DNA of 64,000 bases. It comes from Obrimoposthia wandeli (lineage: Eukaryota). The stretch lies in the NCBI GenBank assembly GCA_977020255.1, contig CDROCS010001087.1, positions 868,001-932,000 of the forward strand, in the 5' to 3' direction. Of this stretch, positions 15,531 through 53,300 are shown piece after piece. Position numbers and translations under genes: made by a program. The notes under the pieces are model-generated. The model was not told the DNA's origin, ran no database searches, and saw only the letters and a program-made list of their open reading frames with translations. Numbering within the stretch: the first letter of the stretch is position 1; the number at the start of each line of letters is the position of its first letter.

Positions 15531-16049
15531 AAATCATGCATACTACGCCAACGGTAATAGGCGCACTCAGGGGGTACCCTTTACTTCAAAACCATGTTAT
15601 ACATGTCTAAAAAGTATCCATTTAAAAAATAATAAGGATGTATAAATATTTTTTTATACTATGTGTTTATAACAACAAGATAATAAATAATAATGAAATC
15701 AGTCCATGTTTATACTCAGTTTTGATTGTTCAACGAAAAAAGACAAAATATTTTTTACAACTTTACATTTTGTAGTTGACGTTTTAAGATGAGAAGTTCT
15801 AACTTCTCAACTTTGATTTTCAACTCTTTAATATCTGAGTATATCTGTAAGTATCCAATTTGTAATTTTTGAGTTCTTAATCTCAAAATTTAAGCTTTTG
15901 ATACAAAAGATTTCATTCTATCGTTCTAAAAGTTCATAGATTAAAATTTATATTGGGAAATACTGTGAAATAGTATGTCATAACATGTTTGTTTGTTTGC
16001 TATTATTTTCATGTCTTTAGAAATAACAAACTTATTTGCAAGTGTAAAC

Positions 16050-16870
16050 GTTTTTAAAAATTTTTTAGAAAAGTTTAGTAAATTCTAACGAGTCTAAAAT
16101 ATCAAATTATAAGTTTAAATATTTTATATTTTTATATTTCTAAATAAATTTCAGATTCTAAACATGTAAGAAATTTTTAAAATGTATTTTTCTAGTTTAT
16201 CATTTATGTAATTTTGTATGATCATACAGTATTTTTAGAGATTTTAAATTTTCAATAATTATCTTTAAAAGGTTTATTACTTTTCAAAAAATATAATTTG
16301 CAAACGATTGTAAAACATGTAATTTATAAATGTATTTTAAAAATTTTATTGAAATTATTATTTATATTCTATATAAATCTAACTTTAATAAAATATATAA
16401 ATTTATGATGTTTAATACTTTTATTTAATGTTAAATAATTTTTATCATTGTATTTATTGTAAATTTTTTTTTTAAATTTTGAAATATGTTTATTTATTTT
16501 TAAGTGTAAAAGTTTTTGAAAATTATTTTAATAACGTTTTTTAGAAACGTTTTTGTAAATATTTCTAATGAATCTAAATTATTGAATTTTAAGTTTATAT
16601 TGGTTAACATTTAACTTAAAATATATATGATATTTTATATCTTAAAACTATGACTACTTTTATTTAATTTAAAAAACTATGGTGTTTAATACTTTTATTT
16701 AATGTTAAATAGTTTTTATCTTTGTATTTAGTGTAAGAAAGTATTTTTTAAATTTTTAAATGTTTTATTTATTTTTAAGTAGGACATTTTTAAACTATTT
16801 TAATTTTGAAAAGTGTTTGTAAAAATTCTAATGACTCTAATTATTGATTTATAAGTTAAAAATTTTTAAA
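16050..16870. repeat. Degenerate AT-rich tandem repeat, period ~275 bp
   Basis: tgtttaatacttttatttaatgttaaata recurs at ~16409 and ~16684; ctaatgaatctaaattattga-type blocks also recur. Confidence 0.5.
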
Positions 16871-18537
16871 ACAATTCTTCTTCTCTCAAAAGCTGACTAC
16901 AAAACTTGGCATGTATTCTAAAACACTTTTTTTCTGACGTCAACCACTGCATAAATATACAACAAAAAACTGAAATTCACAAACTATTTATAATACTAAG
17001 TAGAAATCTCAAAAAAATGTCCGACACTATATACTACTAGGGATGATTTTAAAAGAAAAAAATAAATAAGATATTCCCAAAAAAGAATAAAAACTGATAT
17101 TACATCAGAAGCAAAATTAATTAAAAATTATACTGGGAAACGGCACCTGTTTCCAATCGTGAGACTCCGACACCTGTGAGCCAGCCAATTCCTCGAGGTA
17201 AGTCCCCTTAGCTAAGTGCAGTTAATCTATTTCTCTAGGAAAAGTTCAACAGAGGGAAATTTTCAAGAAAATACGATCTCGAGAAACCGGGGCTAAAGAT
17301 TTATAAGAAGCAGAAGGAAAATTAATCGTTGTTTTCCCAAAAAGAGAGAAAACCGAATTCCATCCATTATCAAGAAACCTGAGGGAGGAAAAACCTAATT
17401 CCATCCATTATCCAGAACCGAGAAACTGAGTATCTGAGAAACTTGGAACGCGACCGGACAATAGGAACAGCTCACCAGAACGAATATTGGTGAGAAATGC
17501 GGTACGGGAACAGTTTTTGAATATATATTTACAATCAAAAAGTGTGAACTAAACCCAATTTTGAATATATAATTACAATGTAACAAGTTTTGAAATAAAC
17601 TGAAAGAAATCTATTGAAACTAAATTTTAAAAGTATAATTAGGCTAAGGTCATCTTTGTTTACCGTGTATTGGACCAAGTGTAATAAGACAAGTTATTGT
17701 CAACTTTAGAACCTTTACAGCTAAGTGTGAATTTAATATAGTCTTTCCTACACATCAAGTAGAGTTAACTCGATCAATCCCATATAGGATTAGAGAGACA
17801 TGAATTTCCCTATACACGACCTTACATTAACGAAAAACTTTTGGTGTACTACGAACACAACTCTCTTCTCAACCGTAATACAAATTACAAAAAAAACCCT
17901 AAAGAACTGAGACTAAGTGAAATAAAATCAAAAGTTATGCCACATACATATGTAAGCTCTATTGCTACAGAACTCACGTTGGGGGCCTCCATACGAGGAT
18001 CTAGTTTCAAATAGATAACCCAACATAACAACAACAAAAATTTCAAAATTTATAAATTACGGGAATTATTTTCTCAAAGGATTTTGGACATCTTCAAATA
18101 TCATGGCAGTATTTTATTAAATATTATTTCAAATTTACTTTAGCTATATGAAATATTAAAGTTATTTACATTCATGAACCGGAATGGAATTTGCAGAATA
18201 AACGTAACTGGAAATAATGAAAATATGAATAGATCATACCACCGCGAAAAACGTCCTGGAATCATTTTTATCAATGTTAAATCTTATATTAACTAATAAA
18301 GATCATAAAGATACCTATCGTCAATAATCTGGATGGGTGCCTGATAAAGAATATGCAATATATAATGGAGGATATCAATAAAGTAAAAAGTATAAAATAA
18401 ATTAGATAAATTTGAGGGATGTGCTTGGATTTTTACAAAATTACAATCTACTTATACATAATGTTTTCATACAGTTAACATGTGTTAGACCAATACATAA
18501 TGAGCGAATATTTCTGATGTTACAGGAACTGAAGGTA
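16479..18537 (+). repeat. Direct duplication, copy 2 (includes LTR-like arm ending at 18025)
   Basis: Near-identical to 1-1814 plus a ~245-bp extra segment. Confidence 0.95.
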
Positions 18538-19030: not shown

Positions 19031-22000
19031 GATAAATAATGTTGATGCATCTCTCCATATCCTTAAGATTTGAATTTTGAAGCAACAGTGTATACTTTAT
19101 TCTTACAAGATAAAAGATGCTAAGATTTCAATCATAGAAAATGTTAAAAGAGGTGTATAGATTTTATTATATTTAAAATGAAAGTAAAGAATAGTAATTA
19201 ATTTTTATGCATTTTACCATAACGAAAACACACACAAATTAATAAACAAAATTAAAAGTCATCTGATTATAATCTAAAATATATTATTAAATAGAAAAAG
19301 AATAAAAAGAACTCGACCACACAAGTTTGTAGCTTTATTATGAATTTATATTTATTGAGATTTTTTGTAGATTTTTGAACACTGTAATGAGATCAAGATT
19401 AAGAAAGTAGAATGTATTGCAAAAAATGTAGGAAATATCTTCTCTCACAAACATGATGAGACATGGCCTAAGTAATAGTGCGGTGCTGTGCGCCGACCTA
19501 ATGCACGTCCGAAATCGAGTTGGATCTTGGAACTTTGAGACAAAATCAATGTGCATTCATGTTACACTTTCGATACTCGGTGGAAAATTCTCCGAACATT
19601 CTTCCTAAAGTATTTGAAATCCTTCTTACTGCATTCCCTAATAAGTAAAGATATTTATTTTCCCGATATTTAGTCTTTTTTTCTGAAATATATCAATTAT
19701 GAATTTATGAAAATGTACATTTATTCTCCTTTCTAATTTGCGACTACAATTTCATTTATTTTGTAAATAAAAACCGGAAGTTATATTTTAAAATTAGGTG
19801 TAAAACACTCTAAAAATAACATAATTGTATAAAAAATTTCCGCCATAAAAATTTCACTCATCAATTAACTTTCTAAATAGTAGGGTTTTCATTTTTTTCT
19901 TCAAGGAATCTGTATTTTTATAATTTAAAAAATCAATAGAGAGATTGTTGCAATATTTCTAAAAATAAATTTCAAAATTTCATTCACTTTGGTGAACGTT
20001 TCAAATATTATTTTTCGGATATTTTTATGCCATTTTTCTTATTTAATTTAACTTTAAATGTATTACTGATATTTTCGCTCTGAAATGTACAGCTGGTATT
20101 TGTATTTATCATTTGTTATTTGAATTACTTCGATTATCTCACCGAGAAAATCTGTAACATGTCCAGTTATCCAAAATATGTCTTAAAATCATTTTATTTA
20201 ATTTTTAATTAAATTATATATATATGTTTGCATTAAAAAATTAAAACTCTTTAAAACCAAAAACTGTGGAATAGGGTAGTTAAAATCGAAAATACGTTAT
20301 AAACATTGTAAGAAACTCTCTAATAAGTACGTCATATACGAAAGAACGTTGTATGTGAGTACACTATAACCGTAAATTATTTAATGCATTCAGAAGATAC
20401 GAATTCAGTCAGGACAAGGTGAGAAGTAAGTTTTATTCCACTGTACATGGTTCGCTATAGCGGGATTATACTGTACTTATATAATTATTTACTTAAAACT
20501 ATTGTAACAGAGATCAGTGAAATAACTCTGCATATTAAGAAATTCAAAGTGCAAAATTTTAGTGCTGTCAAACGAAGCTTCTTTTCAATTTTACTACGAG
20601 AAAGTTCAACATACAAGACACCAAATGAAAAGAAACTAATAATGTATCTTAGAGTGTCGAATCTCCACTTCGATAGGAACCCCTCTTTCTGGAAGGTTAG
20701 ATGTCATAGTTATCAGCGACCTATCAGGCTTGCTAACAAGTATTTGACAGTAAAAGTTACATCAGTTTCACCTGAGGCCTCGTTACTTCATTTGACAACA
20801 CATATGAAGACAGGAGAATTTATCTCAAAAACGAAATTGCACTGCAATTGTTCTGCTATATCGCAATAAAGATATTTAAATAATTTGTTTAATCTGTTTT
20901 TAAATTCATTATTTGATCAATGGAAGGGCTTAACTTTTTTAACCATACTCAGCCTTTTTAATTTCTATCTTTAAATTTAAAATTTTAATAATTTACATTA
21001 CTTTCTTCAAAAAGTTTAAATTAGAAAGCGTATTTATCATACTAAATCACTTAAAATAATAGGTTCAAATTAGAGGGCTTTTACTGTATTATGAAAATTA
21101 ATTCAAAACTGCGTCAGCCAAGTGACATTGATAATATTATTTCTGCTGTTAGAAAGTCTTTATATAACAATAATAATGTTCATGTTCTGATCCGGTCAAG
21201 AACGTTTGTCAAACTTAACCTGCTAAACAAGAAGTGTATTAATTTCATTTCTTCAGCATCTCTTTCAAACACATCAGGCAAGAAAAACTGTTACTTCACT
21301 AAATACACCAAAACACATACATAAACACAAGTCAAACGATCAAGAGGAAAAGCTGACATTTGCTGTCCAGGTTGCAGTTGCACCTGGCCACACAGTTGTT
21401 TGGTTAGCTTTCAGATGGGCATCCGATGTTGTACAGATACCATTAACAGCAATCGAGCCACAGGGATGATGATCATCTGGAAATATTCATACTAGTGACT
21501 GTTGTGAGTAGCACATGTCAATATACTGGAACGATGATGATGATGATGCTGCCACTACATTGTAGCCCTACTGTGCAGATGGGTACACATGTGGATCCTT
21601 GTTGCACCTGTGCGTAGATTCAGTTTATCAGCCATGTTTCCACAACCGAGACATTTCCATAGCACGGAGTGAGAGAAACGAAAACATGCACAGTTCGTTT
21701 ACTATTGGAGCTGATGTAAATCAAACTTTGATCATCTGCAAATTTATGTATGTCTAATTAAAAAACCTAGTTTGATTTATACATTTACAAGCGTACTTGT
21801 GTACACAGCAGCACAAACGAATAATCTCTTGTTAATTTGATTTCGGCAACAGCTTGTTAACACGACAACAACAGTAACCCGAAAGCAAGCTAGTTCTCTC
21901 TGAAGCCCACCGATGATGCAGCCACGATAAAGTCATCAAGAGTCTAGCATACCGCTGATTTAGTCCGAAACACATTCCACAGAAAGTCCTGCAACAAGAT

Positions 22001-25000
22001 TTACTGGCTGGCTTCAGCTAATCCCCGCTTCTACTGTATACTATTCGATGATTTGCACATTTTTATGCGAGTATATAGAAGGAAAATTTATTACGACTAG
22101 GAAGTTTTCACATGTTCAGACACAAAGTCACTTTACTAGCTGGTTCAACCTTAGACTTGAACTGTTAGTGCAGAAAATTATTGCCAAATCGTTAATTTAA
22201 TGAGATTCAATGAAAAATCTAAAAGCCGTTGACTGGTTAGCGTAAACTATCACTTTGTATCATCTTTGTAGTCAAAAGCATGTCAGCTACGCAGGAAAGT
22301 ATTTTAAATGCTGCAAAAAGAAAATCAACATTGTCAGGACGTTTTAAATCCAAAATAATTTTACTTTCGATTTTTGGTTCATGGAAAATAATATAAAATA
22401 CTTAAATAGTGAATATCAAATTCATGCAAAAATTAAATTAGAAATGAAAAAAGATTATCTAAATAATTGGTTTAATAGTCGTTCAGAATTGATTAAAACA
22501 TAAGTTAATGCATTGACATAAAACATTAGGTCAATGAGGGTCCAGAAGATGCTAGCGATATAGAATGATACGTAAGCAGTATCGACGACAAAAACTAAAG
22601 TTATCGATCTTTGCTGACATCGATTATTTTACTTTGAAAACTCGGTAAGCAGTAGATATAGTTAATGCGTGTTGGTTCATTTACATTATTTTAGAAATTT
22701 ATATAAGGAATTTTAAATCCAAAATTGATTAAAATGTACTTGAAAACTCCGAGATGATCTACACACGAAGAAACACTGTTGGACGATCAATATAAAAAAT
22801 AACATAATAAATGATTAAAGATAAAAAGTTGTGCAAGAATTTCAATAATTTTATTATTGGGTTATATTGTTAATATGTTATATGCGATTGAATATTTTAT
22901 TGAATTATTTTGGAGGAATAATTAGGTAGTTTAATTATTCTTAAATTTAAGTTAACTTATTTTGAGGGGATTTTTTTTGTTCCGTTACGTATAGTAAAAA
23001 GCTCTAATATGGGACTGTGAATATATTCGTTGAAGAATTTGTTCTATCTATCACTTTTAAAGACAAAATAAGGTGAATTTTTAATCAATAAAGTAGTCGA
23101 CTAAATATCTAGCAATTAAAAGCCAGACATATTATCCGGGATTATTTCAAGAAATTACTCTTTAGCTTAGATATGAATTTTAAAAATAATTTCGACATGA
23201 AGAGTTGAATTTTTTATTTCTTTTGTACATTCTCAAGTACGTCTAGGAAACGTTCATCAATACTATTTGTGTTTCTTCTTATCTACCTTATCAACAAGTA
23301 TAATATATTCTCTATAAGATGTTGGGTGTTCAATAAATTAAGGGAATATTAATGAATAAATACGGGGAATAAAATGTATTTAGTAGTTACTAAAACAGCA
23401 CTTTTAAATGCTTAATATGTAATTTCGTACATGTTTAATAAATATAAAACATTTTAATATCTTATTTTACAATTTTGAAAGCAATTATTGGTTTAATTTT
23501 AAAATTTATTAATTTTGTGCAGGATCAACATGTCTGAACCAAAATATTGAAGTTTCAAAGTTGCAACTAATTGCAGAAGAATTGAAGGTGTAGGTAGGAA
23601 TCTAGTGTCTTTTTGGCTTTAAACATTGTGTGACCGTAGCAGATTTTTCTAGAGTCTGGAGTTAAATTTTGTGCATGTGTAATAATCAATATTTCGTCAA
23701 ACTGCGAAATACACAGAATCTGTTTACTGGCGGTGGAGGCTGACAGAATTAAGTTCGTGAGCTGGAATTGAAAGATTAAACTAATCTATTTTTGACAAGA
23801 AATCTTTGAACACTCAATAATAATGTGTCCTTTTCTTTTCATAATATACAAAGTCCTTCAACATAAAGTGTAGTTTTAAAAGTAAGCCCCGATAATGAGA
23901 CTACTGTTGTTTTAACGAGTGTAGGGCTTATAAGTATAAAAAGTGATAGATGCGGCACATGTAGATTTGTTTGATATCTGTTCAAAGCTACCACATGCCT
24001 AGATAAAGTTTGATACTAGATTTTTGCTAGTTGTCATTGACGGTTTGACTTCGAAATATCGAGCTCGATTACAAGTGTGCGTATGAATGGTCTAAAGAAA
24101 CCCAATCTGCATGCTGTGTCATCAGTAACCATCATATTAGGAGGAGGGTACATGGAATCTGCTACTGTCTGCGGTGCCTACCTGGCGCACCGGTGCATTA
24201 ATTAGCTCCACTACACTGACAGATATATCTGTGGACAGCCATAATCGAATAGTCATCATTTTCTGACTCCGTATCGCAGTTACTGGCTTGTTTACAACAC
24301 CAATGCACGTGCGCGCATGATTGATGGTGCATCGAGTACGATTCGGCCAAAATCTGGAACAATGCGCCAGCCAGCTAAAATAAATGGTAGTAAATCATTT
24401 GCAGTTTATATTAGGAGAAATTTTAACATATGCAATTTTCTTTGCTGGGTGCAAATTGCCTGATAACGTGAAATGCAATAAATAGAATAGTTCAACAGTT
24501 CCATGTGTCTGTTTTGTATGTGTATCGTCTTATGAGACTTGGATCCCTTTAGATATGCCACTTCTGAAATTGTAACACATTCCTAGCATGAGATCTCTTT
24601 TATCTCTCTCATTTACACTTCGTCTTCTGTAAAATAGAGTGGAATGACTGGAAACTGTGTCTTTGTGTTTAATGTTATAAATTTCGTATTAATTTTACTA
24701 TCGTTCTACAAATATATTCAACCAACTCATCTATGATTAAAAGATTGGAAATTTAAAAGAGCTCTATCTTCTTAGTTTCAAACTCATTAAAATTGAATAA
24801 AAAAACCTCTTGGACATTCAATATCAAGTAAAATATAATTTATTAAAGTTTAAGAGTGTTAAACTTTTGTTTTAATTTATTACTTTCAAAATAAATTAGA
24901 ATTTATATTTAAACGTTTTTTAAAATCTTATCATATGATACACATTGGTCTTGATTCATTTCCAGGCGATGGAATGAATCCAAACGCCAAAAAATTCACA

Positions 25001-26320: not shown

Positions 26321-26607
26321 AGTAGCTATTCAATTAGGTATGTATGTTTTTGTTGCTGTGGTGATTGTTTTATGATTTTAGATAAAATAAGTTTACAAGT
26401 TTTTCTCTGAAATATTGATAAAGCATAACCAATAAAAGTCGATGTCCAAATTGGCTATCCAAGTTTAAGAAAGAGATAAAGTAGATCAGTAGATGAGTTC
26501 ATTCATTTCTTTAACGTTATTGTTTACCGATAGTATATATTTCGAGTACATTATTTATTAGTACATTATTTATTAATATAATTAAGCCTGAACTTCGGTC
26601 TTCTAAC

Positions 26608-27598
26608 ATGGCGACCACGCCAGGACACTTAAGTGCCTTTATTCCAAGTCCCAAGTTTTATGAAATGGGTGAAGACATAAAAGAATTTTTAATCGGAATA
26701 ACGCGATTTTTTGAAATTACCCAAAATCCAGAAAAATTACGAGCGACATTCATCAAGGCGTTCCTGTCAAATGAAGCCTACAATGAATACGAGAAGACGA
26801 GTGAAAAAGATGGCAAATGTGAAGAACGATGCAGAAAGAAACATTGTTCCAGTGTTTATCAGAAGCTATGAGTTACAAAAGAACTACAGAAAATGTTGAT
26901 GCATATTTAAAAAAAGTAGAGAATTTGACAAAGAAGATTATGGAGCATGATATTACTAAAGAAACTATCATTAAATGCATTTTGGATAACTCGATGAATT
27001 CAGATGCATTGAAAGAACTGAAGCTACGCAATGTTCAGGATTTGAAAGAAATAAAATAAATTATTTCTCGGATGGACACGATCAGAAAGAATTCGACGTC
27101 AACTGAAGAACTAGCTGATATGAAAATAAGAAGAAGTTATGCAAATGCAGCAGAAAAAAGACCACGTCAAGAATGGTTTGCCAGAGCACCTTATCAGCAG
27201 CGTTGTATGAATCAACAACATGATTACCGACACCAGAATAATGCAATGAAAAGAGACATCGGTCAATATCGGTTTGAGAAAAAATAATATGGAAATAGGA
27301 GAACGTACCCAAGAAATTCCGATTACAATTTGCAAATTACAAAACGATGTTGAGCTAGTAAAGAGCTGGGACATACGAGAGCAGAAAGCCATAATGTAAG
27401 TTGTTCCCATTGTAAGAAGAAAGGCCATTTCAAGCACCAATGCTACGAAGTTCGAGAAGATCACAGAAGCCGGATTCCAGTTGCTGTAGTTGAAGACTAC
27501 GATTCTGGAGATGACAGTGAAGAAGATGCTAGAAGAAGCGACCCAAACTTCAACTCTCCACTGTGCGAGGAGTTAGTCGGAGCGATAACAACAATGTA
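26608..27598 (+). pseudogene. gag: Gypsy gag
   Basis: Frameshifted ORF pieces with zinc knuckle CSHCKKKGHFKHQC (~27403-27444) preceded by a degenerate second knuckle. Confidence 0.8.
26609..26626 (+). promoter_or_regulatory. Primer-binding site, probably tRNA-Arg
   Basis: TGGCGACCACGCCAGGAC immediately follows CA; resembles the complement of a tRNA-Arg(UCG) 3' end (recalled TGGCGACCACGAAGGGAC). Confidence 0.6.
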
Positions 27599-27759
27599 AG
27601 TGTCATATTGAGCAATGAACGTTTTACTGATTCTAAATGTGTGAGTATTAGTGATTTTTTAGTGATACCTTAAATATTTGTGAATTTAAAAAATATGTTG
27701 ATGTTTTAAGTAATATAAATTTATTTGTAAATTCTTTAAACAATATTAGTTATGATGTT

Positions 27760-28735
27760 ATGAATGATCAACCTTCTATAAATATAATGATTCAAAACTT
27801 GAAATATCCCTGTCTATTAGACACAGGTGCTAAAATTATTGTAATTAACAGTAGTATTTTCCATAGGTTAGATAATATTAATTTAATAAAAAGTGACGTA
27901 ATAGTTAAATGCGCAAATGAAAGTGATATTCAAATTTTAGGATTTTGCTTTTTAGATATTTATTTTAATTCAAATTGTAAATTTATTAAATTTTACGTTG
28001 CAGAAAATATTGCATCTTCTGTTATTTGTGGTATTAATTTCCTAACAGAATTTAATATATTTTTAAATTTGAACCTTAAGGCTGAAGAAGAATTTGTAAA
28101 TGAAATATTTTTTGACGAAACTAAAATCAGATTCAACAATTATTAAAATTATACAGGAAAACAAGAATGCTTTTATGCAAAACGAATGGGATATAGGTAA
28201 AACAGATATAATAAAACATAATATAGTGACGAAAAGACCTCCGATTGTAATTAATTAAAGAAGACAACCACATAATTTAATAGATAAAATAAACGATAAT
28301 ATAAAATAAATGGAAACAAAGGTTATAATTGAAAAATGTGAATATCCGTGGAATTCACCTCTTGTATGCGTTAGGAAAAAGAATACTGATGATATAAGAA
28401 TTTGTTTGGATTACAGAGCATTAAATGCAATTGCTGAAAGTCCGATTTTCCCAATACCAAATACTGAAGAAATGATGGATGTGCTCGGAGGTGCGAAGTA
28501 TTTTACATCGCTAAACTTAGGTAGTGATATTATCAGATCAAATTATCCGAAAATTCAAAACTAAAAACTGCATTTTCTACCAAAACAACACAGTACTGTT
28601 TCACTAGAATGCCTTTTGGTATTGCAGCTGCTCCTGCTATGTTTCAAAAGTTAATGAATAAAGTTTTAGGAGAATAAACTGGAAAGAAGCCATTGTATAT
28701 ATAGATGACATATTAATATTTTCTGAGAGAAAAAA
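27760..28735 (+). pseudogene. pol: Gypsy pol: aspartic protease and reverse transcriptase
   Basis: LLDTGA; PWNSPLVCVRKK..RICLDYRALN; RMPFGIAAAPAMFQKLM; YIDDILIFS. Confidence 0.9.
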
Positions 28736-28769
28736 AGATATGTATAAAAGAAACCTTTCTGAGCCAGAC

Positions 28770-36622: not shown

Positions 36623-37696
36623 TTATAAGAGTTCCATCTTGGACCTGGTAGTGTCTCCAGGATTGGGGTGGCAACCTGCATACTCCACTAAAGCGATTTC
36701 TGGACTATGTGACAATCCCAGTGACTTGGGGACCCCCAAGAATCGCGTGACCCTCTTCTGGTAACCGGAGTCGTCTTCGCAAAGGTTGTAGTAGACACGC
36801 TGCAATGTCAGTACTTCGCGGGGCTGAATCTGGAATGGCTCGAATATGTGTGTGCCCTTCTGGTAAGCCCCAAATTTACCACCCCGACGCTGTATGGTGC
36901 GAATGTGGCTCATATTACTCATGTCGTAGTAGGTCTTCGCTGACGAAGACTTTTCCATGACCCAGTCGCCACATTCGTCCTTGAAGTTGTTCAACTTGCT
37001 TTTATTGTTAATATTTTGGTCAACAGTATCCTTGACGACATGGAAACAGTTTTCTTGAATTCCTTTTGGAATTTGCGATAAAGTAATCAAGTTTGTGTGG
37101 GACTTGTCACTCAGAAGTTTTATCATGAACCCCACTTTTAAAAATTGTTGTTCGTGCTTTTTACGTGGTTTTCTCGGTGGCTTCTTTATGGATCGACTTA
37201 CTTTATCAGATGTTATTGCAATATCTTGTTCTGCCACTGTGTTCTTTGGTATTCTTTCGATATACTCCACAACGGCAATGTTTGGAATTGGTAGCTGAAA
37301 ACAGGTTGGAACTATCTCTAGACGTGTCACTCTCTTGCATAATTGTGGTACTTTCTCCAGCTTGTAATAGGTTCGACACATTTGTATAATTTCATCCGGT
37401 TGTTCTTCAAGAGGAATGAAGCTGTGAACTTTGTTTTGTACTTTATGGATTCCATAGACACCGTTTATCAGATCCACGCTTTGGATACGATCTTTCTTAT
37501 CTATAATATATTGAGATGTCGTTGACGAAGTCTTTCTGCGGTCCCAAGTTCCACAATCATCCGGGAAGTTGCAAGTTTGTCCTGACGTCGAAGATGAACT
37601 TTTCACGTCATTTTTCATAACAAAAAATACAAATTCTTTCACACCATTTGGTATCTTCTCGTGAATATCCTTTATTTGTGTGAAAACATATTTCAA
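36623..37696 (-). pseudogene. Second copy of the tandem CG-1-like gene, 5'-deleted
   Basis: Lacks the first ~110 codons and the original ATG (track start is TTG). The frame is open to the same stop, with 21 amino-acid differences counted over ~350 aa. Confidence 0.7.
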
Positions 37697-38139
37697 ATTA
37701 TTTAATGGTTATCCAAATTAGGTTATCATGTATCAAAAAGAGATTATGAGATTATTTGCTAAACACGAATTTCGGAATGTGAAATGAATAAATTAAATGA
37801 ATACTAAAATACGTATATTTAAAATAAATTAAGTGTTATAGATAAATGAATGACACTCTATAAATAAATAAATCACACTCTCAATCCAAGAACAAATGAA
37901 TGAATTATATTAGATTTCCTCTTGAAATGTACTATCGGTAAACGTTAATAATAACGTTAAAGAAATAAATTAACTCTACTTTCTCTTTTTCTTAAACTTG
38001 GATAGCCAATTTGGACATCAACCTTTATTGGCTACGCTTCATCAATATTTCAGGAAAAAAAATTGTAGACTTCTTTTATTTAAAAACATAAAACAATCAC
38101 CACAGCAACAAAAATATACCCACCTAATTGAATATTTAC

Positions 38140-38790: not shown

Positions 38791-39189
38791 TAAGATAATA
38801 ATAATGTAATTAGACGTGCTGGCAGTAATTTAATGATTTCCTTGTAGTAAAAATATTAAACAAATAAATTATTTGTTCAACTGTATAAAAAATTGGTTGT
38901 ATAACTCAAATTTAGGCTATGGTGAATACGTCGAGAAAAGCTTTTGTTATTTACACTATAAAATTATGAAACTCTGATTTTAAAAATTGATAGCATCTGA
39001 ACCTGTATCGTTTGAATTCTAATTTGGGATTTTTAATTACATGCCTTCGTCTGGATGTAGACAACAAAATTGGTTGATAGTCAACCGTCTACAAATATAT
39101 CTCTGAATAGACATAACTTATTAAATGGATAATTCCTAAAAAACGGTTAATTAAATTTTCTCTGAAATTTCTCAAAGGTAATTTATGGA

Positions 39190-39860
39190 TTTTTAAATAT
39201 GTATTTGGATAGAAAGTTGAGAATGAATTAATACATTTTTAAAGAATGGAATTGATTTTTGACGATTTGACAGGGATTTTGTTGTTGGATTCAGTGTTTC
39301 AGGATTTTCCCGATAAACTATGTTTGGGACATAGCAATCTTGCATTTTTCCAGATTTAGAGTAAGGTTTGCTCGTGATATAGTTCGAAAAACGTTTTCTA
39401 AAGTCTCGGCGTTCATTAATTGAGTTTATGTAAATAAATATATCATGAAGAGAAGCTGAAACATTTGGAATATCATTCAAAAAGTTATCCATCAATCTTT
39501 GATAGGTAGCCGGCGCACTTTTAAACCCAAATGGGGTGATAAAAGCGCTTTTCATTCGATCATTGTCATTTATAGGTTAAATCCAGAGCACTAATAATTG
39601 TAGCTTTTCCAACTGAGTCCAAAACTTAATCAATTTATGGCATTGGATAACTATCAGTGGCAGTGGTTTGATTTAATTTTCGATAATCTTGTACTTAACG
39701 GAGGGATCCATTCTTCTTTGGAACAAATTGAGTTGGGCAAGCATACGGACTGTAAGATTATTCTATAATATCTTCATTGAGTAATAATTTAATCTCTTTT
39801 TTCATAGCGTATCTTAGTGAATGTGCTACCGGATACGGCTTTTGCACTAGGCCAGCTGCA
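39190..39860 (-). pseudogene. Gypsy reverse transcriptase remnant
   Basis: PYACPTQFVPKKNGSLR*VQDYRKLN..DSYPMP and AFITPFG..FKSAPATYQRLMD. Confidence 0.8.
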
Positions 39861-40024
39861 CTAGCAATTTCAGACAAGGATCACTTAGTCAGGTGAGTCT
39901 AGACATTGACTTAAGTGGCTTGGAAAGTTTTTCCATTTCGAGTCGATTAGAGTTGAGTGTTTTTTAATTAAACTCATTCCATTTGCAGAAACAGGCAAGC
40001 AGTGAGAGATTATTCCGTTGCAGT

Positions 40025-42884
40025 TGTTGGGGTTTCTTAATGAAACTGTTTCTAATATAGATCCTCAGACGGAGGGCCCCAACGTGAGTTCTATAGAAGC
40101 AGGACTTGTAGATGTTTGTGGCCTACTTGTGTTATGCTTGCCTATCTCAATTTGTATCTGAAGGTTTACTAAGGTTAGGTGTGGTGAAATGTGTGAAGAG
40201 CTGTGTATGTGGTTACTACAAAGTTTCCTTAGTGTGGTGTTGTATCTAGAGTAGTACACAACTACTCGCTGGTAAGGGTTCGGTTTGGTACAACACGGTT
40301 TACTGTAGGAAATCTTTATTTCTAAACACACAACTTTACGTTAAATACGTTCTAAAAACAACTACACAATTCTAGTTATGTTGCACAATTCTCAAACAAG
40401 TGGGGATAATCCACGTATCGATTTTATTTTAGGGTTGTTTAGTTACTAGAGTCTTTACTCTAAAAATAGGGGTTGATTTTAGAGAGCTGGGTGCTCTAAA
40501 ATAGGAAATGAGTTTATTCACGGTATAAATTTCGGTTTTCTGTTCTCTTTAGTTTTTATCAAAATATTCAGGTTATAATTCACAAAATTTCAATTTATGT
40601 TGACTTCAGTCTTTATCAAAATATTCTGGTTATAATTCACAAAATTTCAATTTATGTTCACTTCAGTCTTTATCAAAATATTCAGGTTATAATTCACAAA
40701 ATTTCAATTTATGTTCACTTCAGTCTTTATCAAAATATTCAGGTTATAATTCACAAAATTTCAATTTATGTTCACTTCAGTCTTTATCAAAATATTCAGG
40801 TTATAATTCACAAAATTTCAATTTATGTTCACTTCAGTCTTTATCAAAATATTCAGGTTATAATTCACAAAATTTCAATTTATGTTCACTTCAGTCTTTA
40901 TCAAAATATTCAGGTTATAATTCACAAAATTTCAATTTATGTTCACTTCAGTCTTTATCAAAATATTCAGGTTATAATTCACAAAATCTCACTTTTCTAC
41001 CTCGTATCCGAATCGGTCTGCTCGTTCTCGTGTCCTTACTTGGTTCCGTACGGCTCGCTCCGAGATCAATCACCTAGGCTCGGTCGGCGGGTTCCTTCTT
41101 TTGTTTCGTCAGTATCTCGAATTGCGCTCCCCGACCTAGCTTCGTTTTAGGTGGCGGTTTGAATTGACGTCTGTGATCCTGCACGTCTGTTTTTAGAGCG
41201 TTCCTTTCCGGCTGTGCGCTTCACTTACTTTTGTCGTCTGATCACGATTGCCAAGATATTCTTTTCCCGAATTTTCAGTCAGACGATTTTGTATCTCAAG
41301 TTTCCAATTTATCACTTAATTTTGATACTGCTGCTGTACTTCTGAATTGGTTTTTGTTAATGCTCGGATTTTATCACGAGTCTTACAATTTATGAATTCT
41401 GAATTTTAGGTCTCCTTTAATTTCTTTTTTGAGCCAACCGATTTGTGCGTTTTTCAATTAAATGTTCTCTCTTTTATATCAGTCGAGTGAGTAATCTTCC
41501 CCGCGACTTTCCTTAATGGGACTAAGTAAATTTACTAGCACTTTAACTAAGTGCACCTACTTTGGGCTGGGTAATTATCGGCTGTCCTGTTCCCAGTCTG
41601 ATGGCTGCTTGTCTCCCACTTGTGGCTAATGGATTAATTCCGCTGCTATCTATAAGGAAGAAAATTAATTTAGCTAAGTGCTAATGTTTCTTACCTTGAT
41701 TTATTTCTTGATTAATCTTCTTTCCTAATTTGATTTCTATTTTTCGTAAATAACTTCTTCTTTTTTGGAGCCTTTTGGTAATATTAAAATCCCTTAAATA
41801 CTCACACACTACACATGACCTTCGTGGTCCTAAATATTTAATTCCCATCTTAATTTTAACAATTTAATTTTATTATAAATTTTATTTTAAATATAACCTT
41901 TCTTTCAAGGATTTTTATTTTAGTATAAAATCAATTAATTATTCAAAATTACTCAAAACCTAATCCTAACACAGTCAGCGTATAAATACAACTACAAATA
42001 GTTGCCAATGCAGAATCGACAGCAAAAAATAAATTGCAGCTCAAACTTGCTCGTCCCGGAGAGATACAGGAACGTGCAAGGAAAAAACGTTGAAACGATA
42101 TAAGAAGTTATCACTCTCGGAACTGCTACCCTCAGCAAACAAACCGAAACGGATCTTGGAACAGGACGAACCGATTGCATTCCCGAGCGACGTAGAGAAA
42201 CTCATACTGCGAACCGAATCTCATCAATAACGACTATGAACGAATCTTGTGAGACTAGAGATTGAGTTAAATTGCGTGAAGAATTTTTATAATTTAAAGT
42301 TATAAAATTATATTTGATAAAAGAGACTGAGTTTAATTGCGTGAAGAATTTTTATAAATAAAGAATTACATTTTAAAATTAATTATTCAATAAAATCGTA
42401 AAAAAGAAGTTAAAAGTTTTCAATTGAGTTGCCCATATTTTATTCATAAAATCTTTAAAAGGAGTTAAAGTCCAAATTGAAAATTGTTAAAACAGATACA
42501 TAAGACATCCCCATTTGTGTGAAGTTTAGTGAAGTAGTTAGGACTAAGTGTTGAAATTTTTAGAAACCTATTTAGAGTGAGTTTAGAAAATAAAGATTTC
42601 CTACATTAGAGAGTGTTGTCTTGAACGAACCCTTGTAATCAGGTCAGAACCAACCCTCCATACATAACACCACACAAAGGGAATTTTCCAGTACCATATA
42701 CACAGCTCTTCACACATTCACAACAACAAACAAAAACAAACCTTCAGATTAAACATTGAGACAGGTAAGCACAATCTAAGTAGGCCACAAACAACTGCAA
42801 GCTCTACTTCTATAGAACTCACGTTGGGGGCCTCCATCCGAGGATCTATCAGAATCCAAAGCATTTCATATAGAAACACCAACA
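40025..42884. mobile_element. ~2.9-kb LTR-like unit with long inverted arms (TGTTGGGG...CACCAACA)
   Basis: Left ~350 bp is a diverged reverse complement of the right ~350 bp; adjacent to an RT remnant; no target-site duplication found. Confidence 0.6.
40549..40987. repeat. 57-bp tandem array, ~7.5 copies
   Basis: Unit tattcaggttataattcacaaaatttcaatttatgttcacttcagtctttatcaaaa; starts at 40565, 40622, 40679 ... 40964. Confidence 0.97.
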
Positions 42885-44267
42885 CTAGCACTTCATTACC
42901 TTTATTAAATGTAGTAGATTTAAACTTTATACCATACCACTTCTTTAATTTTTTTCATCTTTTTCATTCTGAATTTCTGATACTTGTAATTTATCTTTCA
43001 TATCCAGAATATATTCACATAAATTTAATTCTTTTTCATCTATCATGATTTTTTTTTTCAAGACGACCAGGTCAAATTAACTTACAGAAATTCGCCACAA
43101 CTCTACCAATACCATCATTCATGAACGAACCAGCATCAGAATATCAACCAACCGTAGGAATTGTACTGGTTATACAAGTTACGACAACTGAAGCTGGTTA
43201 CCAAATCATTATAAACAGGTGGAGACAAGATGGGATACGTGCTCTATATATAGAGATACCTAGACTAAAAAGAAATCACGTAGTAAACATGCAGCTCCCG
43301 ACCTCAGCGACTGAAAATGTCGACCAGGAATTATACATTATCTGTGACATCAAGGTGGAAACCGATAATCATTCACCATACTACCAACCCATTCTATTGT
43401 ATTACGAGAAGGTTATATGGTTAAAAACTATTTATACAAAGTTTCTAACCTTAAAAAATCAAAGGTCGAAATAAATTTAATATTAAAAAATTTAAAATAA
43501 ACTGAATTAAAATAAATTAGGTCCTTGAAGAGGTCGTAGGAAAATGTTTATATTAAGAACAAACAATGTACAAAAATGGCCCAAGAGAAATAGAATCAAG
43601 AACATATATAAATTTAATTGTAAAAGTAATTAACGAAGAAAAAAGGTGACTCGTGCTGTGCCATAGAGACAGACCAGAATCCATTAGTCCGAGTGTTGGG
43701 GTTTCTATACGAGACTTGTATAGATCCTCTTGTGTGCGGAGGGCCCCAACGTGAGTTCGAATAGAAGCAGGTCTTAAAGTTGGTCGTGGCCTACTTAGTG
43801 CTATGGTTGCCTATCTCTATTACTTATCTGAAGGTGTTTGTTTGACGTCTCTTAATCTGAAGGGCTTAAAACAACGTTTTCTAATGTAGGAAATCGTTTA
43901 TTGGTAACACACTAAACTAACACACAACAATACGTTTACGTACGTATTTTCTAAAAAGTATAGTAAAAATTCTTAAGACTTCTGTAAGTCTCTCCAACAA
44001 GTGGGGATGAACCACGTATCGATTTTACTTTCGGGGTGATCGAGATTTTAGAGTTGTTCCTCTGACTCGAGAATAAGCTTACGTTACAGATTTTTCAACT
44101 CAAATTAACTCTACTGTCGGCTTGAACTTTTGAGGTTAACCCTTTATTCTTATGTCAATAAAGGTGGGAATGTAAAAACTTCTTTTTGAGTTGGGCAATT
44201 TATAACACAACTCTTTTAAAACTTTCTTTCAAATTGGACAAAAACTTTAATCGTGTTGACAACGAGA

Positions 44268-44675
44268 GTTGTTGCGAATTGTCAACTTTGGACAATGTAT
44301 ATGGTTTACGAAAGTTGTTCCGAATTGTCAACTTTGGACAATGTATATGGTTTACGAAAGTTGTTCCGAATTGTCAACTTTGGACAATGTATATGTTTTA
44401 CGGGAGTTGTTCCGAATTGTCAACTTTGGACAATGTATATGGTTTACGGGAGTTGTTCCGAATTGTCAACTTTGGACAATGTATATGGTTTACGGGAGTT
44501 GTTCCGAATTGTCAACTTTGGACAATGTATATGGTTTACGAAAGTTGTTCCGAATTGTCAACTTTGGACAATGTATATGGTTTACGAAAGTTGTTCCGAA
44601 TTGTCAACTTTGGACAATGTATATGGTTTACGAAAGTTGTTCCGAATTGTCAACTTTGGACAATGTATCTGGTTT
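44268..44675. repeat. 46-bp tandem array, ~9 copies
   Basis: Unit gttgttccgaattgtcaactttggacaatgtatatggtttacg(aaa/gga). Confidence 0.97.
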
Positions 44676-44784
44676 AAATTTAGACAACTCGTCTCACCGA
44701 TCTTAATTGGATTTGTTCGAAATCCGCTGTTACTGCTGGGATGAGGTATCGCTCTGTTGCTGGAATCTCTGCTGCTGAGATATC

Positions 44785-45156
44785 GATTGAGAATGAGAAC
44801 TGCTACTGTTGCTTCAGACGTCGATTGCGAATGAGAACTGCTACTGTTGCTTCAGACGTCGATTGAGAATGAGAACTGCTACTGTTGCTTCAGACGTCGA
44901 TTGAGAATGAGAACTGCTACTGTTGCTTCAGACGTCGATTGAGAATGAGAACTGCTACTGTTGCTTCAGACGTCGATTGAGAATGAGAACTAATACTGTT
45001 GCTTCAGACGTCGATTGAGAATGAGAACTGCTACTGTTGCTTCAGACGTCGATTGAGAATGAGAACTGCTACTGTTGCTTCAGACGTCGATTGAGAATGA
45101 GAACTGCTACTGTTGCTTCAGACGTCGATTGAGAATGAGAACTGCTACTGTTGCTG
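44785..45156. repeat. 38-bp tandem array, ~10 copies
   Basis: Unit gattgagaatgagaactgctactgttgcttcagacgtc; starts at 44785 with 38-bp steps to 45127. Confidence 0.97.
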
Positions 45157-48100
45157 TTATCGGGATTGCTGTGACTCTGGTGAACTGAAAAATCAATAAA
45201 CTAAATTTCACCTAGAATCAAATCACCTGCACTGATCGCTCTGCTTTTTTGTTTGGTATACTTCTGTGTGCGATTGGTTTCCACTCTTGTCTATTTGGAA
45301 AATTTGCTGTAGACTTATATAGTCTGTTTTTCTCGATTGCTTTGGTGACGTGGTCTGTCACTCACTTCTCTGGAATATTCAGGAACAGCTGTTGTGACGT
45401 GTCTGCTGACGTCAACGGAATTCTCTGGTTTGTACTTTCTTCTTTTTTGCGAATTGTCAACTTTTCTTTTTTTTTTTCGGCAACTTTGTCTTTTTTGGGC
45501 CCTTTTCTTAAGTCTAACTTCAATATATATTCACACATTTCACACGACCTTCGTGGTCCTCTAACTTTTAATCTTATTTAAATTTAATAATTTTAATTTT
45601 GATTTTTAAAATTTATTAAATTAAATTCTAACCTTGCTTTCAAGGATTTTCATTTCACTATAAAACCAATTTATTATTTTAATTTTTTAATTCCTAAACC
45701 TAACACGAGCAGTACACAGGAGCAGCAGAAGACCGTTTCCACAAAGGTAACAATTATATATAAACCAATAAATTGAGCCATCGACACAGTATTGGAAGGA
45801 GAATCACAAGAAAGAAAATTGAAAAAGACAGTATTCAATTAGAATCGAAAATAAGAATTACAGTAGGATTAGTGCGAAATTTCCAGAGACGGAATGGCAA
45901 AGACGTTGTAAAATTGGTATACAAAGAAATTTGGAACTGCGAATCAGGCAGATTATATTTAAATTTGAACAAGTTATTTGAATTTGAACAAAGTTATTTG
46001 AGTTAGAAGTTTTGGAGTTATTTTGAATTGAAAAGCTATTGAGTAAAATTACATTTTGAATTGAAAAGTTTATTAAGTAAAAATCAGATTTGAATTGAAA
46101 AGTGTATTGAAGTAAATAATTCTTTAATTAAAAGTAAAACCTTAAACTAGTAGAGAATTGATTTACGTTGATGGTAAAAGTATAATTGTAAGAGTGAAAT
46201 TATCATAATATTGTATAAGTGTAGAGATAGTATACTATAGTAAATATTTAGATAGATGGGTAGTAAGGCACAGGGAATAATTTGAGGGGTGATTATAGCA
46301 GGAGGCGTATAAAAATATACGCGTAGAAAATTGTCAACCCTATTGTGTATTTCTGTAGTAATTTTAGGAAGTTCTAAGTGTGCTAAGTTTAATATAATTA
46401 TTCTAGCGAAATCGATAGAATATTCATTCCGAGTTAAATTCCTTGTGAAATTTGTGTGCCTCCTAACATATAGATTTACCGAGGGACAACCCACGAGACA
46501 ATATTTCACGTACTGACAGATTCAGAGGGGTATTGTCTAAGTCGATTGGTTCCGGCTCTGTTTAATTGATATTCAGTCTCGGTATTGCCAGACCCTTCCG
46601 ACATAAAATGCTAACTCAGCTGATAAGTGATCCACCTTACGTACATCACACAACACTAGTTTTGGGGTCCTACTAGCTATTATGTGAACATAAATCTTTG
46701 AACATAAAACAAGACAATAAGACACAAAATCCTTCAGATTTGAGACTAGAATTAAGTAACAAAAGAACAGGTAGGCCACATCCACATGCAAGCCTTATCG
46801 CTACAGAACTCACGTTGGGGACATCCACACAAGTTAGAAAGGTTTCAATTAAAAACCCCAACAATATGGCCGTAGTGGTGAAGAGTAGAATTGATGAGGA
46901 TATTAAGAAGGCAACGAGTAGTGGATAACAACATACTTTTATTGAATTCCTGTTTTAGGATCAATTCCCAATTATTATAAACAATAATATAATAAGGTGA
47001 CAACAAAAATAAACTATAATATAACTCGCATAATAAAACACGCGTACACATACTGCACACATAAAATGTTATAGGGGTCACCACAGTATAATGTAAATTT
47101 GAACTGTCTAAATCCTATTGAATATGGCACGATCAGACAATTATTATGAAGGATTTTACTTGAGGTTTTACCATTATCTAATGAATAAAACTTATTTAAA
47201 ATGGATCATATTTCTCGGAGTATTTCTTATTTATTTTTATCGAACTGGAATAAATTGTTTAATTATACAGTTGATATTCAAATGGAAGAAAGTGAACATA
47301 TTGATTTATTTACCAAACTAGCAGACAATGACAAATGTTCTTTTTATTGAATTCGGTAAAGGAAAAATTCAAAGGAGTCATTTATTTTAGAGTGATTCAA
47401 CGTCTCAAAATAAATTAAGATTTCATCCAGATTGGATTATGAACAGTACCATTTTTTCAAATAAGAAAAATAACACATAGAACAGAAAAGAAAGATGTTT
47501 AATCATATTTTTTTAATTAAGAAAAAACAATATTTGGACAATTATATAATTTCATCGTAAGTTTATAATATTGTTTAGTTTTGTTATTAATTTACAAATA
47601 GTGCATTTTTGCTGTTGCAATCCATGACTGTATGTTGTCTAAAATTGTCGAAATTTATTTCTAAAATTCTTCTTAAGTTATATAAATAAATAGACTAGTC
47701 TCAAAAGAGTTCAAGCTTGATAGTTCCATACAAATGTAGATAAAAAACAGAACTATTTTGTTTTTCTTTAAATTTAAACCCATTTAAAAATAGTTTCATC
47801 AGATTTTTCAGATGTATTTTATTAGAAAATTGAAATAAGTTTTTTTGTTTACGAAATCAAAACCAGACTGAATGAATGGATCATAATATGAATCGTATTG
47901 CCGTAATAATGAGGCGGTTGATAATTTCATTAATACAATACCTTCAAAGTTAATGGCTATGTCCATTGTGATTCCCCTGCTCTAACGTATACCGACAATC
48001 TATACTAAACGAACTATAAACGAGGTTCATAAAAAAATTATTGTAGTCCACAGAGTTTTCAATTACTTTAATTTAAAATGACTAAAGCAGTCGTTAAATC

Positions 48101-50399: not shown

Positions 50400-53300
50400 A
50401 GATACAAATATTTATGGGTATCAAGTAAGTTATCCCTAAACATTGCCGGTAATAAGTGATTATCTAAACTAACATTTTTACATTCTAAAAAGAAAGAGTC
50501 AGTGTCCTCAGCTGAGATTTTGATCTCACAATTGAATTCTTGTTGATATTTCTCTAATTCTATGTATTGAAGCTCATACATTCTGAGTTTAGAAATGTCT
50601 AAAACCGTTTGACTTATATAACAAGTCGATCGAGACAAATACTCTGTTTTCCTAATAACACTGCTACCAAGTCATCTGCAATTGTAAAACGACGCTTGAA
50701 GTTGTACTTGCTAGTATATGTTATTAGTTTACGGTCATCATTGCAAAACCGTAGATAAATACGTTTCCGCAAGTCCTCTACAGTTTTTCCGAAGATACTA
50801 TTACTTTTTACCTTGTAAAAATCCCGATCGAATTTGCTAGTGGCCAAATTACATTTTCTAGAATTCTTCTCAATATAGTTTTTAAACACAAAGTTTTGAC
50901 TGAAGCTTAAAGCACGATGGATTCGAGTGACTTTCGCTCCCAACTTTAAGTAGAATTGAAGAAGCCGCCAATGCACCACATAATTCAACTTGTCTTCATG
51001 GGTTAACAATAATTTCTTAACCTTTGAATTAGGTAGGCATTGATGAACAGGCGCTACTGGAAGATCACCTAATTTATCATGTACATTGGGAGGGATTTTT
51101 AAGTCAACCTCAACTAAGTAGCTGACGTATGATAAAACTGTATCAACAGTAGCCAAATCTGTCATAAACTTATTCAACTCTTCCTCATCATAAACCCACT
51201 TAAAGTTGGCATGAGATAGAGGTTGAGTAAGCGTCCACCCATACAAATTATTAATGTCGATGTACAGAATCTCCACGGATTGATTTTTGACAACATGATG
51301 TTTGTTGACAAAAGTCATTCCACCGTGTATACCATAATAATATATTTGATACATCGTGGGATCTTGCAGTGACTCGATATTAATATTAAGAGTTTTTATT
51401 GCCGTTACCCATGAAAGACCAGGTAAACTAAAGAAATGCATGGGATCTAGCCCATCTTCTGCTAAAGACATTAAACGAAAGGACTCAAAAACATCAACTA
51501 AAAGATAAATGTCTAACTACATATAATAAAGCATGTAATCTAGAAGATTTCAACAATTATTCTCCCAAAATGTACGGGCCTCATTATAGTCTTGAAGACT
51601 TACACCCTCAAATTAAGTTATGGTGGGATTTTTGTAGTATTTTCTAAATCTGCAAAGGTTTTCACAAATTTATACAGAAAAATCCCCTTATCATTAACCG
51701 AAGCTGGGAACACTGATTAGGTAATTGGCCATGCATTTAAAGATGCCGTTAAATTTTTTAAAGACCCGCTCAAAAACTGCAGAGAATCTATGAATCTTAA
51801 ACTGCAGAAATCAGTATATACAGTTAAAGATAAATATTTCTCTGAAGTTTGAGGTATACATGAAATTTCCCAAGAGCTTAATGTACACAACGCGTATTTA
51901 AGTATATGATGCAAATCATATCCTTTGAGATTATGAAACACGATGGGAATGCGTAGTTTTTTAGGTAGACGACGGCCAAGAATACAGAGGTTGCACTCCA
52001 CTCTCAAGTATCGTCCTATAACATGATCGTGATCTCTGACTAACTTAGACTGGGTTCCACACAAATAACATAATCTACAAGAATTAAAATTAATCCAGTC
52101 TATGCCTTTCATGATCATTGCTTGATTAGCATTAAGATCATACCACGGTTTGACAATTGTAGTTCCTAATTCTTCTGAGTTTAACATAAAATCTAAAATA
52201 CAATTTGGACCGGAAAATGTATGATACTGTGTAATATTGGGGCTTAAGAATAATAGGCCTGCCGAAGCCGGTATGTGAATACTCTCATACTGATCGTGCA
52301 ATGCTAGAATTGACTCAAAATCAAAATACACCCTGAATTCCACGGTTACGCATTTTGCCCAATACTTGAATTTTAAATCCTTATCCTTAGGCATGCTATA
52401 TAGCGTATTGTCATCAGGATTCAGTGAACATAATTTCAGGTGTTTGCTGTAAGATAGCTCGGATTGGAATCCATGCAAACATATATGACACCACTTACAT
52501 CTTATCGTAACCGGTAAGGCTCCATTATCTAAATTTAGAAGACGATCTAAATTGGGAATTGCAGCATAGTGGAATTTTTTATTATGTTCGAGCAAAATGA
52601 AGTTGACCTGAGTCTCCTCATTTTTGCTCCTATAAATTACATCTACAAAATGTTTTTTTTTAATTTCTTCATCTGTTACATTAACTGAGATATTAGTATT
52701 ATATTTGAATACATTAATATTCAAGTTATTAAGGTGTTCAAATCTTGATATCGCAGTTAATTTAACAGGAAAATCTATTCCATGATACTGCAATTCATTT
52801 AAAAAAGGGGTATATTTACTGACACGCTCTCTATGTTCAGTAATTACACCCCTTTTGAGGATGGCCAACACGCTATACAGAAAGCAAAGGTTATCACTGT
52901 TTTGTACGTTAACAATGGAATGTGAAAGTTGAAGAGATCTAGGTGAAGGAATGTATGAACTCCCCGAAAGATATATCATGTCAGTGAACTTTGTTAGAAC
53001 AAAGCTAACATCGTGAATTCTTACCAGAGTCCATCCACTACTTAACTCGCTATAATTAGCAATTTTCTTTCATCTAGGTTTCTTCCAATTTCAGTTACAA
53101 AATTATGATAGAAAACAGTTGCTTTATGTGAAATTACCCAAGTTTTAGTTTCCTCATTGAAATTTTTAAACTGCACTGTTGCGCAAAATTGAACCTTAGC
53201 CTGTCCTAATTTAGTCAATTTTGATTTTAAAAGACTTTTAATATTTGAATCTACACCTACGTTTAATAAAATTTCATTTCCTAATGGCACCTTAACTATA

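Follow-up and report, generated by a model that had tools for sequence, protein, structure and literature searches.

The stretch of DNA analysed here, referred to as the window, is a 64 kb piece of an Obrimoposthia wandeli contig (CDROCS010001087.1) that carries two related repeat units of about 3 kb separated by a short spacer. Unit 1 (U1) occupies positions 40025-42884 on the + strand (2860 bp) and unit 2 (U2) positions 43694-46863 on the same strand (3170 bp). They are diverged but colinear members of a single, highly abundant repeat family, represent different subfamilies and are each a putative solo long terminal repeat (LTR). Both units begin with TGTTGGGG, while U1 terminates with CACCAACA and U2 with CCCCAACA, giving termini of the form TGTTGG...CCAACA. 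An earlier annotation based on the letters alone, here called the sequence-only reading, had described LTR-like units of one family with precisely these boundaries and ends; the sequence bears out the coordinates, and the common family is upheld by colinearity in three blocks and by public contigs that join parts of U1 and U2. A third family end, of the right type, is located at 1164-1302 (+ strand) with a second copy at 17893-18025, inside a 98-99% identical duplication (1-1814 versus 16479-18537, with a 242-nt indel), and no core was found upstream of the end at 1164-1302. Five ends were thus studied: U1 left, U1 right, U2 left, U2 right and this third right-type end. The motif TGTTRNR...YNYAACA, which characterises Metaviridae termini recognised by integrase (PMC3601003), is present exactly at four of the five and with one mismatch at the U1 right end.

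U1 and U2 align in the same orientation over three blocks (40025-40461 with 43694-44063, 41752-41972 with 45482-45706, and 42780-42836 with 46771-46827) and share a layout of left arm, subfamily-specific tandem arrays, a core of about 220 nt and right arm. The array of U1 (40537-40995, + strand; 57 bp x 8.1, 97%), a putative U3 array, is unrelated to the two arrays of U2 (44262-44676, 46 bp x 9.0, 97%; 44783-45155, 38 bp x 9.8, 98%; both + strand). The cores are 75% alike over 228 columns. That of U1 (41752-41972, + strand) contains two short palindromes and a TATAAAA at 41924 and is a putative promoter, and that of U2 (45482-45706, + strand) has its TATAAAA at 45659. An AATAAA follows in each unit, at 42028-42033 (+ strand) in U1, where it may act as a polyadenylation (polyA) signal, and at the aligned position 45767 in U2. 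The spacing from TATAAAA to AATAAA is 104 nt in U1 and 108 nt in U2, and such a pair arises in less than 1% of 5000 local shuffles (0.0078 and 0.0094). The + strand is T-rich to the left of the core and A-rich to its right, a skew flip that is clear in U1 and weaker in U2. The longest ATG frames outside the arrays have only 54-62 codons in either unit, frame and Pfam scans detected no recombinase, reverse transcriptase (RT), Rep or transposase frame inside U1 or U2, and Rfam returned a single chance-level match (E 0.79).

The ends of both units are inverted copies of one another to a differing extent. The left arm of U1 (40025-40331, + strand) matches the right arm (42577-42884, - strand) at 76% over 315 nt (blastn E 3e-52), with a patchy extension to about 40405 and patchy likeness or recognisable motifs out to about 380-400 nt from each end. 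The left arm region of U2 (43694-44063, + strand) is homologous to U1 40025-40461, and just its first 140-150 nt recur in inverted form, at 67-68%, at the right end (46726-46863, - strand). Inverted arms of hundreds of base pairs, which the sequence-only reading described for both units and called clearest in the first, are clear only in U1, and the term quasi-palindromic does not suit units whose arms account for some 10-25% of their length and enclose a polar interior. The predicted arm duplex of U1 has an energy of -337 kcal/mol (mean of 30 shuffles -109, best -130), and that of U2, at -124 kcal/mol against a mean of -52 for 30 shuffles, is also above chance. A scan of the window with an arm profile gave six matches, all of them termini, and no internal region complementary to the ends.

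On a tree of the five terminal 145-nt arms the left arms fall together, the U2 right arm and the third end form one cluster with a bootstrap of 100, and the U1 right arm lies between, by which left and right ends are distinct types. The U1 right arm is 82.5% alike to the U1 left arm over the terminal 143 columns versus 68% to the U2 right arm and, to judge from five sequences, looks partly homogenised with its left partner. The two arms of U2 are among the least-alike arm pairs, and arm likeness within an element ranges overall from 68 to 83%. CCTTCAGA, GCCAC and GAACTCACGTTGGGG are found in all five ends. The inner motifs that the sequence-only reading had listed as part of the inverted similarity, ATTTCCTACA with AATAAA, CCCCAYTTG and a donor-like AGGYAAS, are confined to U1 left, U1 right and U2 left, where the distance to the terminus is about 120 nt for AGGYAAS and 209-296 nt for AATAAA; the U2 right end and the third end at 1164-1302 are devoid of them. 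Canonical AG/GTAAG occurs at one of the five ends.

Close to the tip of each arm is an invariant 15-mer, CCCCAACGTGAGTTC, which starts about 42-56 nt in from the terminus at all five ends (40077-40091 on the + strand in U1 left; further copies at 42815-42829 (-), 43744-43758 (+), 46806-46820 (-) and 1247-1261 (-)). Pairing of its first letters with the terminal GTTGGG is possible and would enclose two small hairpins, and 92% of the cells in the tip stems are paired compared to 30-54% when the stems are slid. The folding of the tips is mostly unremarkable, with z < -2 in three of ten folds. A tRNA-like cloverleaf can be folded at the tips and was rejected, as covariation is absent. The 15-mer resembles the primer-binding site (PBS) complementary to tRNA-Lys. 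The window was compared with a 17-nt PBS of foamy virus given in PMC3386198, which agrees in its first 11 letters with the tRNA-Lys2 PBS of Drosophila gypsy (PMC1635307). Family arms make up the five best matches (13, 13, 13, 12 and 12 of 17); an unrelated site also reaches 12 of 17, and shuffles yield about 1.6 sites with at least 12 matches per window.

The abundance of the family is apparent from public contigs of four sequencing runs (X1-X4), which stem from one sample of one study, possibly the source of the window, and hence are not independent of it. Between 26,987 and 41,706 contigs per run were placed at 80% likeness on 39000-48000, and depth refers to summed contig depth, not copy number. 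In run X1 unique-looking exact pieces have a depth of 40-52, arm bins reach 0.2-1.9 million and the cores 0.14-0.5 million, so that arms and core exceed unique-looking pieces by a factor of 3,000 to 40,000. Depth falls to 788 (42010-42310) and about 4,000 (44719-45320) in the subfamily interiors. This contrast implies a very large and diverse family of which arms and core are the parts in common. In the same run the spacer has a depth of 22,000-25,000, the left flank with its RT region 1,200-1,400 and the right flank 900-1,800. None of the four runs matching the stretch is an RNA run. Of two motif scans of metagenome contigs, one found nothing and the other 10 stretches, which have 44-69% GC and none of which is homologous by the arm profile (best E 0.055); a motif scan of viral contigs gave none.

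Among the joints listed (15 of 257 and 12 of 308), contigs cross in register from the left arm of U2 to that of U1 (43717 to 40050/40055; 44027 to 40441/40464), from core to core (41841 to 45577) and from right arm to right arm (42848 to 46842). A right end is joined head-to-tail to a left end in at least three contigs of X1 and at least one of X2. The core end at 41971 (...CCTAACA) is joined directly to the terminus at 43694 in at least four contigs of X1 and at least three of X2; joints after this sequence and after the ...CCAACA (42884) of another copy possibly reflect nested or tandem insertion at end-like sites. Among the loose ends listed before 43694 (24 of 5163), agreement is low in X2-X4 (0.54-0.57; 47, 35 and 27 contigs), which marks a true boundary with many flanks. 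The same final letters, about 12 in number, recur there in three of the four runs listed (X2-X4), which hints at a fixed neighbour in a subset of copies, for example an internal region.

U1 and U2 share their ends, order and polarity, belong to a highly abundant family, and lack coding frames and target-site duplications (TSDs). They are with a probability of about 0.6 solo LTRs of a long-LTR Gypsy lineage resembling Osvaldo and Woot, organised as U3-R-U5 (unique 3', repeat, unique 5') on the + strand and with an inverted repeat of at least 140 nt. We infer this assignment, the orientation and the solo origin from the layout of the units. U3 would correspond to the left 1.9-2.0 kb with the arrays, transcription would start at the TATA box of the core and end at the AATAAA about 105 nt further on, leaving a short R, and the remaining 0.8-1.1 kb would form U5. 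The inverted repeat recognised by integrase, ordinarily a few bases long, would have been extended to at least 140 nt. In a full-length RNA the end of U5, beside the primer site, would then be complementary to the start of U3, beside the polypurine tract (PPT), and their pairing would close a panhandle that joins both priming sites, with the tRNA-Lys-like 15-mer sharing in the pairing at the primer site. A T-rich U3 has been described for rGmr1, which is placed near Osvaldo and Ulysses (PMC3601003). Judging from depth and translation, the two flanks of each unit are different host sequences, a pattern that suggests recombination between copies. It is proposed that U1 and U2 are leftovers of recombination between elements, which would explain both the unrelated flanks and the mosaic arms.

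Several observations weigh against this interpretation. A TSD, sought as an exact repeat of 4-5 nt or one of 6 nt with a single mismatch, with 0-3 nt of slack, is absent at all three boundary pairs tested (U1, U2 and U1+spacer+U2) and thus from both complete units, in agreement with the sequence-only reading. Its absence is compatible with solo LTRs because recombination between elements yields solo LTRs without TSDs, as in pear Cassandra where 250 of 1038 lack them (PMC4079214). None of the five ends is preceded by a clean PPT (4-10 purines of 15) or followed by a tRNA-Lys PBS, the U2 right end having TGG at +4. The roughly 12 recurrent letters before 43694 are not a purine tract, and read outward TGG comes after 8 nt, with no PBS at the usual distance. 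No gag-pol is tied to the family in the window, the spacer between U1 and U2 contains none, and the RT region adjoining U1 is degenerate and repeated much less often. The TATAAAA/AATAAA pair was chosen post hoc, and the window contains 11 such pairs on the + strand and 7 on the - strand. Visual inspection shows no GT-rich element after the + strand AATAAA, whereas the - strand of the core has AATAAA/ATTAAA and then a GT-rich stretch, which makes the orientation less than certain. Compensatory change is found in none of 26 pairs of the tip stems and the covariation is matched by 440 of 500 shuffles, which leaves an RNA structure undemonstrated. The likeness to tRNA-Lys was likewise noticed post hoc, with shuffle p values per arm from <0.0005 to 0.033 that are uncorrected for some 50 possible tRNAs, and six letters of the 15-mer are dictated by complementarity to the terminus. 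Since many tRNAs could have been tried and the terminal stem forces some of the letters, the resemblance of CCCCAACGTGAGTTC to a tRNA-Lys PBS is suggestive only.

The same arms would be expected of a non-autonomous cut-and-paste DNA transposon of the Ginger type, in which they would serve as transposase-bound terminal inverted repeats (TIRs) and the interior would be decayed filler with a leftover promoter. Ginger elements are 2.6-7 kb long, with TGTNR termini and TIRs of 40-297 bp, and include non-autonomous copies (Bao et al. 2010, PMC2836005). Termini, TIR length and the size of about 3 kb accordingly liken U1 and U2, with arms of 140-315 nt, to Ginger1, Ginger2/TDD (PMC2836005) and GingerRoot (PMC6839031); the 140-150 nt of U2 fall inside the TIR range and the 315 nt or more of U1 slightly above it. 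The U1 arms are more alike than the right arms of U1 and U2, as would be expected if arms evolved together, and the tip palindromes keep their sequence without covariation as protein-binding sites would. However, Ginger insertion leaves a TSD of 4 bp, CCGG/CCGT/ACGG for Ginger1 with an RTATAY target for Ginger2 (PMC2836005), and neither a TSD nor a target of either type is present at U1 or U2. Arms within one element are strongly imperfect (just 68-83% alike) despite a uniformity of 97-98% in the tandem arrays, left arms cluster across subfamilies as the U2 right arm does with the third right end, and no transposase remnant is found among the short frames. In addition the promoter/polyA-like polar core is conserved and repeated about as heavily as the arms, although a non-autonomous TIR element needs none. 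A Ginger-type transposon is the main rival explanation, though an unlikely one. Because the TSD test fails for both families, U1 and U2 are filed in neither Gypsy LTRs nor Ginger, and most likely work like LTRs.

The sequence-only reading saw what appeared to be outward-facing promoter/polyA cassettes and proposed either two-headed LTRs of a giant Gypsy lineage or a non-autonomous foldback element; between a Gypsy LTR and a foldback element the former is favoured here. In its strong form a two-headed LTR would carry a promoter, splice donor and polyA signal at each end and be transcribed divergently from the core, for instance into a sense genome RNA and an antisense accessory gene. The donor-like motif and AATAAA at set distances from three of five termini fit such an arrangement, as do the AT skew, which flips at the core and leaves both outward strands A-rich in U1, and the repeated open frame with a pyrimidine tract and AG just beyond the U1 right end. 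The claim of a cassette at each end is not supported, given that AATAAA and donor-like motifs are missing from two of the three right ends, including U2 right despite heavy cover by related contigs, and that a canonical donor is rare. Aligned positions of the two units share just one promoter/polyA-like set, which is central and on the + strand, and the symmetry of motifs in U1 is due to the duplicated arm, all of which makes a two-headed LTR highly unlikely. Imperfect inverted ends, missing TSDs, a foldable tip and the head-to-tail end junctions are also reminiscent of a tyrosine-recombinase retroelement of the DIRS kind or an element with folded termini like those of single-stranded DNA viruses. 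DIRS elements have an internal region complementary to the element ends, which the arm profile did not reveal here; moreover the TG...CA ends match the integrase motif, the units contain no recombinase, RT or Rep frame, and few of the tip folds stand out, rendering this origin very improbable. Least credible is that truncated LTRs of different families came to lie back to back by chance, the condition under which the sequence-only reading would have had to be abandoned. It would account for the separate grouping of left and right arms and for the dissimilar arms of U2, but the order of left arm, core and right arm is repeated in two subfamilies with unrelated arrays, and this colinearity together with contigs that join U2-type and U1-type parts in register speaks against it.

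The family of U1 and U2 is likely a variant of known long-LTR Gypsy elements, set apart by its unusually long inverted ends. In Tribolium Woot the LTRs reportedly measure 3.6 kb and carry inverted repeats of about 141 bp at their ends, an arrangement that would come close to the anatomy of U2. Were this anatomy right, U1 and U2 would be larger-armed relatives of a little-studied known case and not a new class. The accessible text of PMC2397513 does no more than name Woot. The Osvaldo lineage (Osvaldo, mosquito cqgypsy, Calliphora Isis-like and Tribolium Woot) is similar to U1 and U2 in its TG...CA ends and in its long LTRs, which measure 997-2137 bp (PMC3286476) and 2.57 kb (PMC3630058). Its members always use a tRNA-Lys primer site (PMC3286476, PMC3630058), which the invariant arm motif resembles. 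Unlike in these elements, the motif lies within the arms, some 50 nt away from either terminus, the arms of U1 reach 315-400 nt, and neither unit has an attached PBS, PPT, TSD or gag-pol. The LTR model for Metaviridae (Benachenhou et al. 2013, PMC3601003) shares with the units its ends, a T-rich U3 in Sushi and rGmr1, and short stem-loops near the ends (the U5-IR analogy); its TATA-like box followed by AATAAA has a putative counterpart in the pair chosen post hoc in U1 and U2. In that model inverted conservation covers about 7 bp compared to at least 140 nt in U1 and U2, whose putative U5 is 0.8-1.1 kb long with no GT-rich element evident after the + strand AATAAA.

A precedent for bridged RNA ends is provided by Drosophila gypsy and yeast Ty3, which have a tRNA-Lys-complementary site near the RNA 3' end (PMC1635307). 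There the tRNA itself is the bridge and the 3' site pairs with its anticodon/T-stem region (PMC1635307), whereas in U1 and U2 the bridge would be direct pairing between arms and the motif resembles the acceptor-end PBS itself. The giant Gypsy elements of planarians called Burro have long LTRs, thousands of copies and accessory open reading frames in an AT-rich genome (PMC6431247). Compared with U1 and U2 by description only, they are not mentioned as having inverted LTR ends in the accessible parts of PMC6431247, PMC11410931 and PMC8532177. LTRs with long inverted ends are likewise not described in the literature titles and abstract openings searched, a scope that does not establish their absence from print.

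A family with inverted ends of 140-400 nt blurs the line that annotation tools draw between LTRs and TIR DNA transposons, and such repeats are thus probably misfiled in non-model genomes. If its members are LTRs, the family would offer many natural variants for testing U5-U3 pairing in priming and strand transfer, as well as a way to study how Ginger-type TIRs could arise from LTRs, an origin that Bao et al. left as a hypothesis (PMC2836005). It is conceivable, as a long shot, that in this Gypsy lineage the LTR ends have become co-evolving long TIRs which close an RNA panhandle, that the tRNA-Lys-like block in U5 gates or replaces the primer, and that the 3-kb LTR may move alone in the manner of a TIR unit, which would make it an extant intermediate between LTRs and Ginger.

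U1 is adjoined on its left by a decayed Gypsy RT region on the - strand (39193-40024; Pfam RVT_1, E 1e-4) with several stops and frameshifts, which is probably host sequence and not the unit's own interior. The spacer (42885-43693, + strand, 809 bp) is itself repeated sequence, and its link to the units is unproven. It contains an open frame of 141 codons (43049-43474, + strand) with an ATG at 43121 that would give 117 amino acids. A pyrimidine tract and AG lie just before the frame. The number of related contigs over the frame rises to 84, and the match of one contig is confined to it, so the frame may be a conserved gene of a repeat family. It has no Pfam match, no homologue at near lengths and no viral locus, and its weak Atlas feature matches leave recognition below threshold. 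A structure model of low confidence (pLDDT 46) has no match at E 0.001, and an assignment as an Fn3/Ig protein was discarded since it consisted of two summed-repeat matches and not real homology. U1, spacer and U2 were also considered as a single LTR-internal-LTR element; this was rejected in view of the different subfamilies, the missing TSD, PBS and PPT, and outer flanks between which no protein link was found.

The window is otherwise rich in Polinton-like and Gypsy fragments. Polinton-like fragments lie at 4953-5255 and 50614-53069 (both - strand) and at 1810-2871 and 3225-3758. They include a protein-primed PolB (PF03175) and a frame with a TBP domain (PF00352, E 1e-10), which is situated about 2 kb from a related piece and may be element-borne. 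A frame of 464 codons at 9620-11014 (+ strand) has an inverted second copy at 36623-37708 (- strand; 94.6% over 2 kb), no Pfam match and two database relatives, one of which weakly matches PHD and OTU domains. Another decayed Gypsy element, not related to U1 and U2, occupies 26515-28760 (+ strand) with gag-like, protease and RT-like pieces; at about 26609 it has a PBS-like TGGCGACC after an ...AACA that resembles an LTR end. ARAGORN predicts one candidate tRNA-Leu(TAA) at 13377-13459 (+ strand). The 3' part of the spacer and positions 15150-15340 were tried as relatives of the core and dropped, with scores of 78 and 92 versus shuffle maxima of 68 and 86 and both missed by the core profile. Two near-perfect palindromes are located at 15308-15382 and 15454-15536, about 70 nt apart, with 84-87% identity over 76 and 83 columns.

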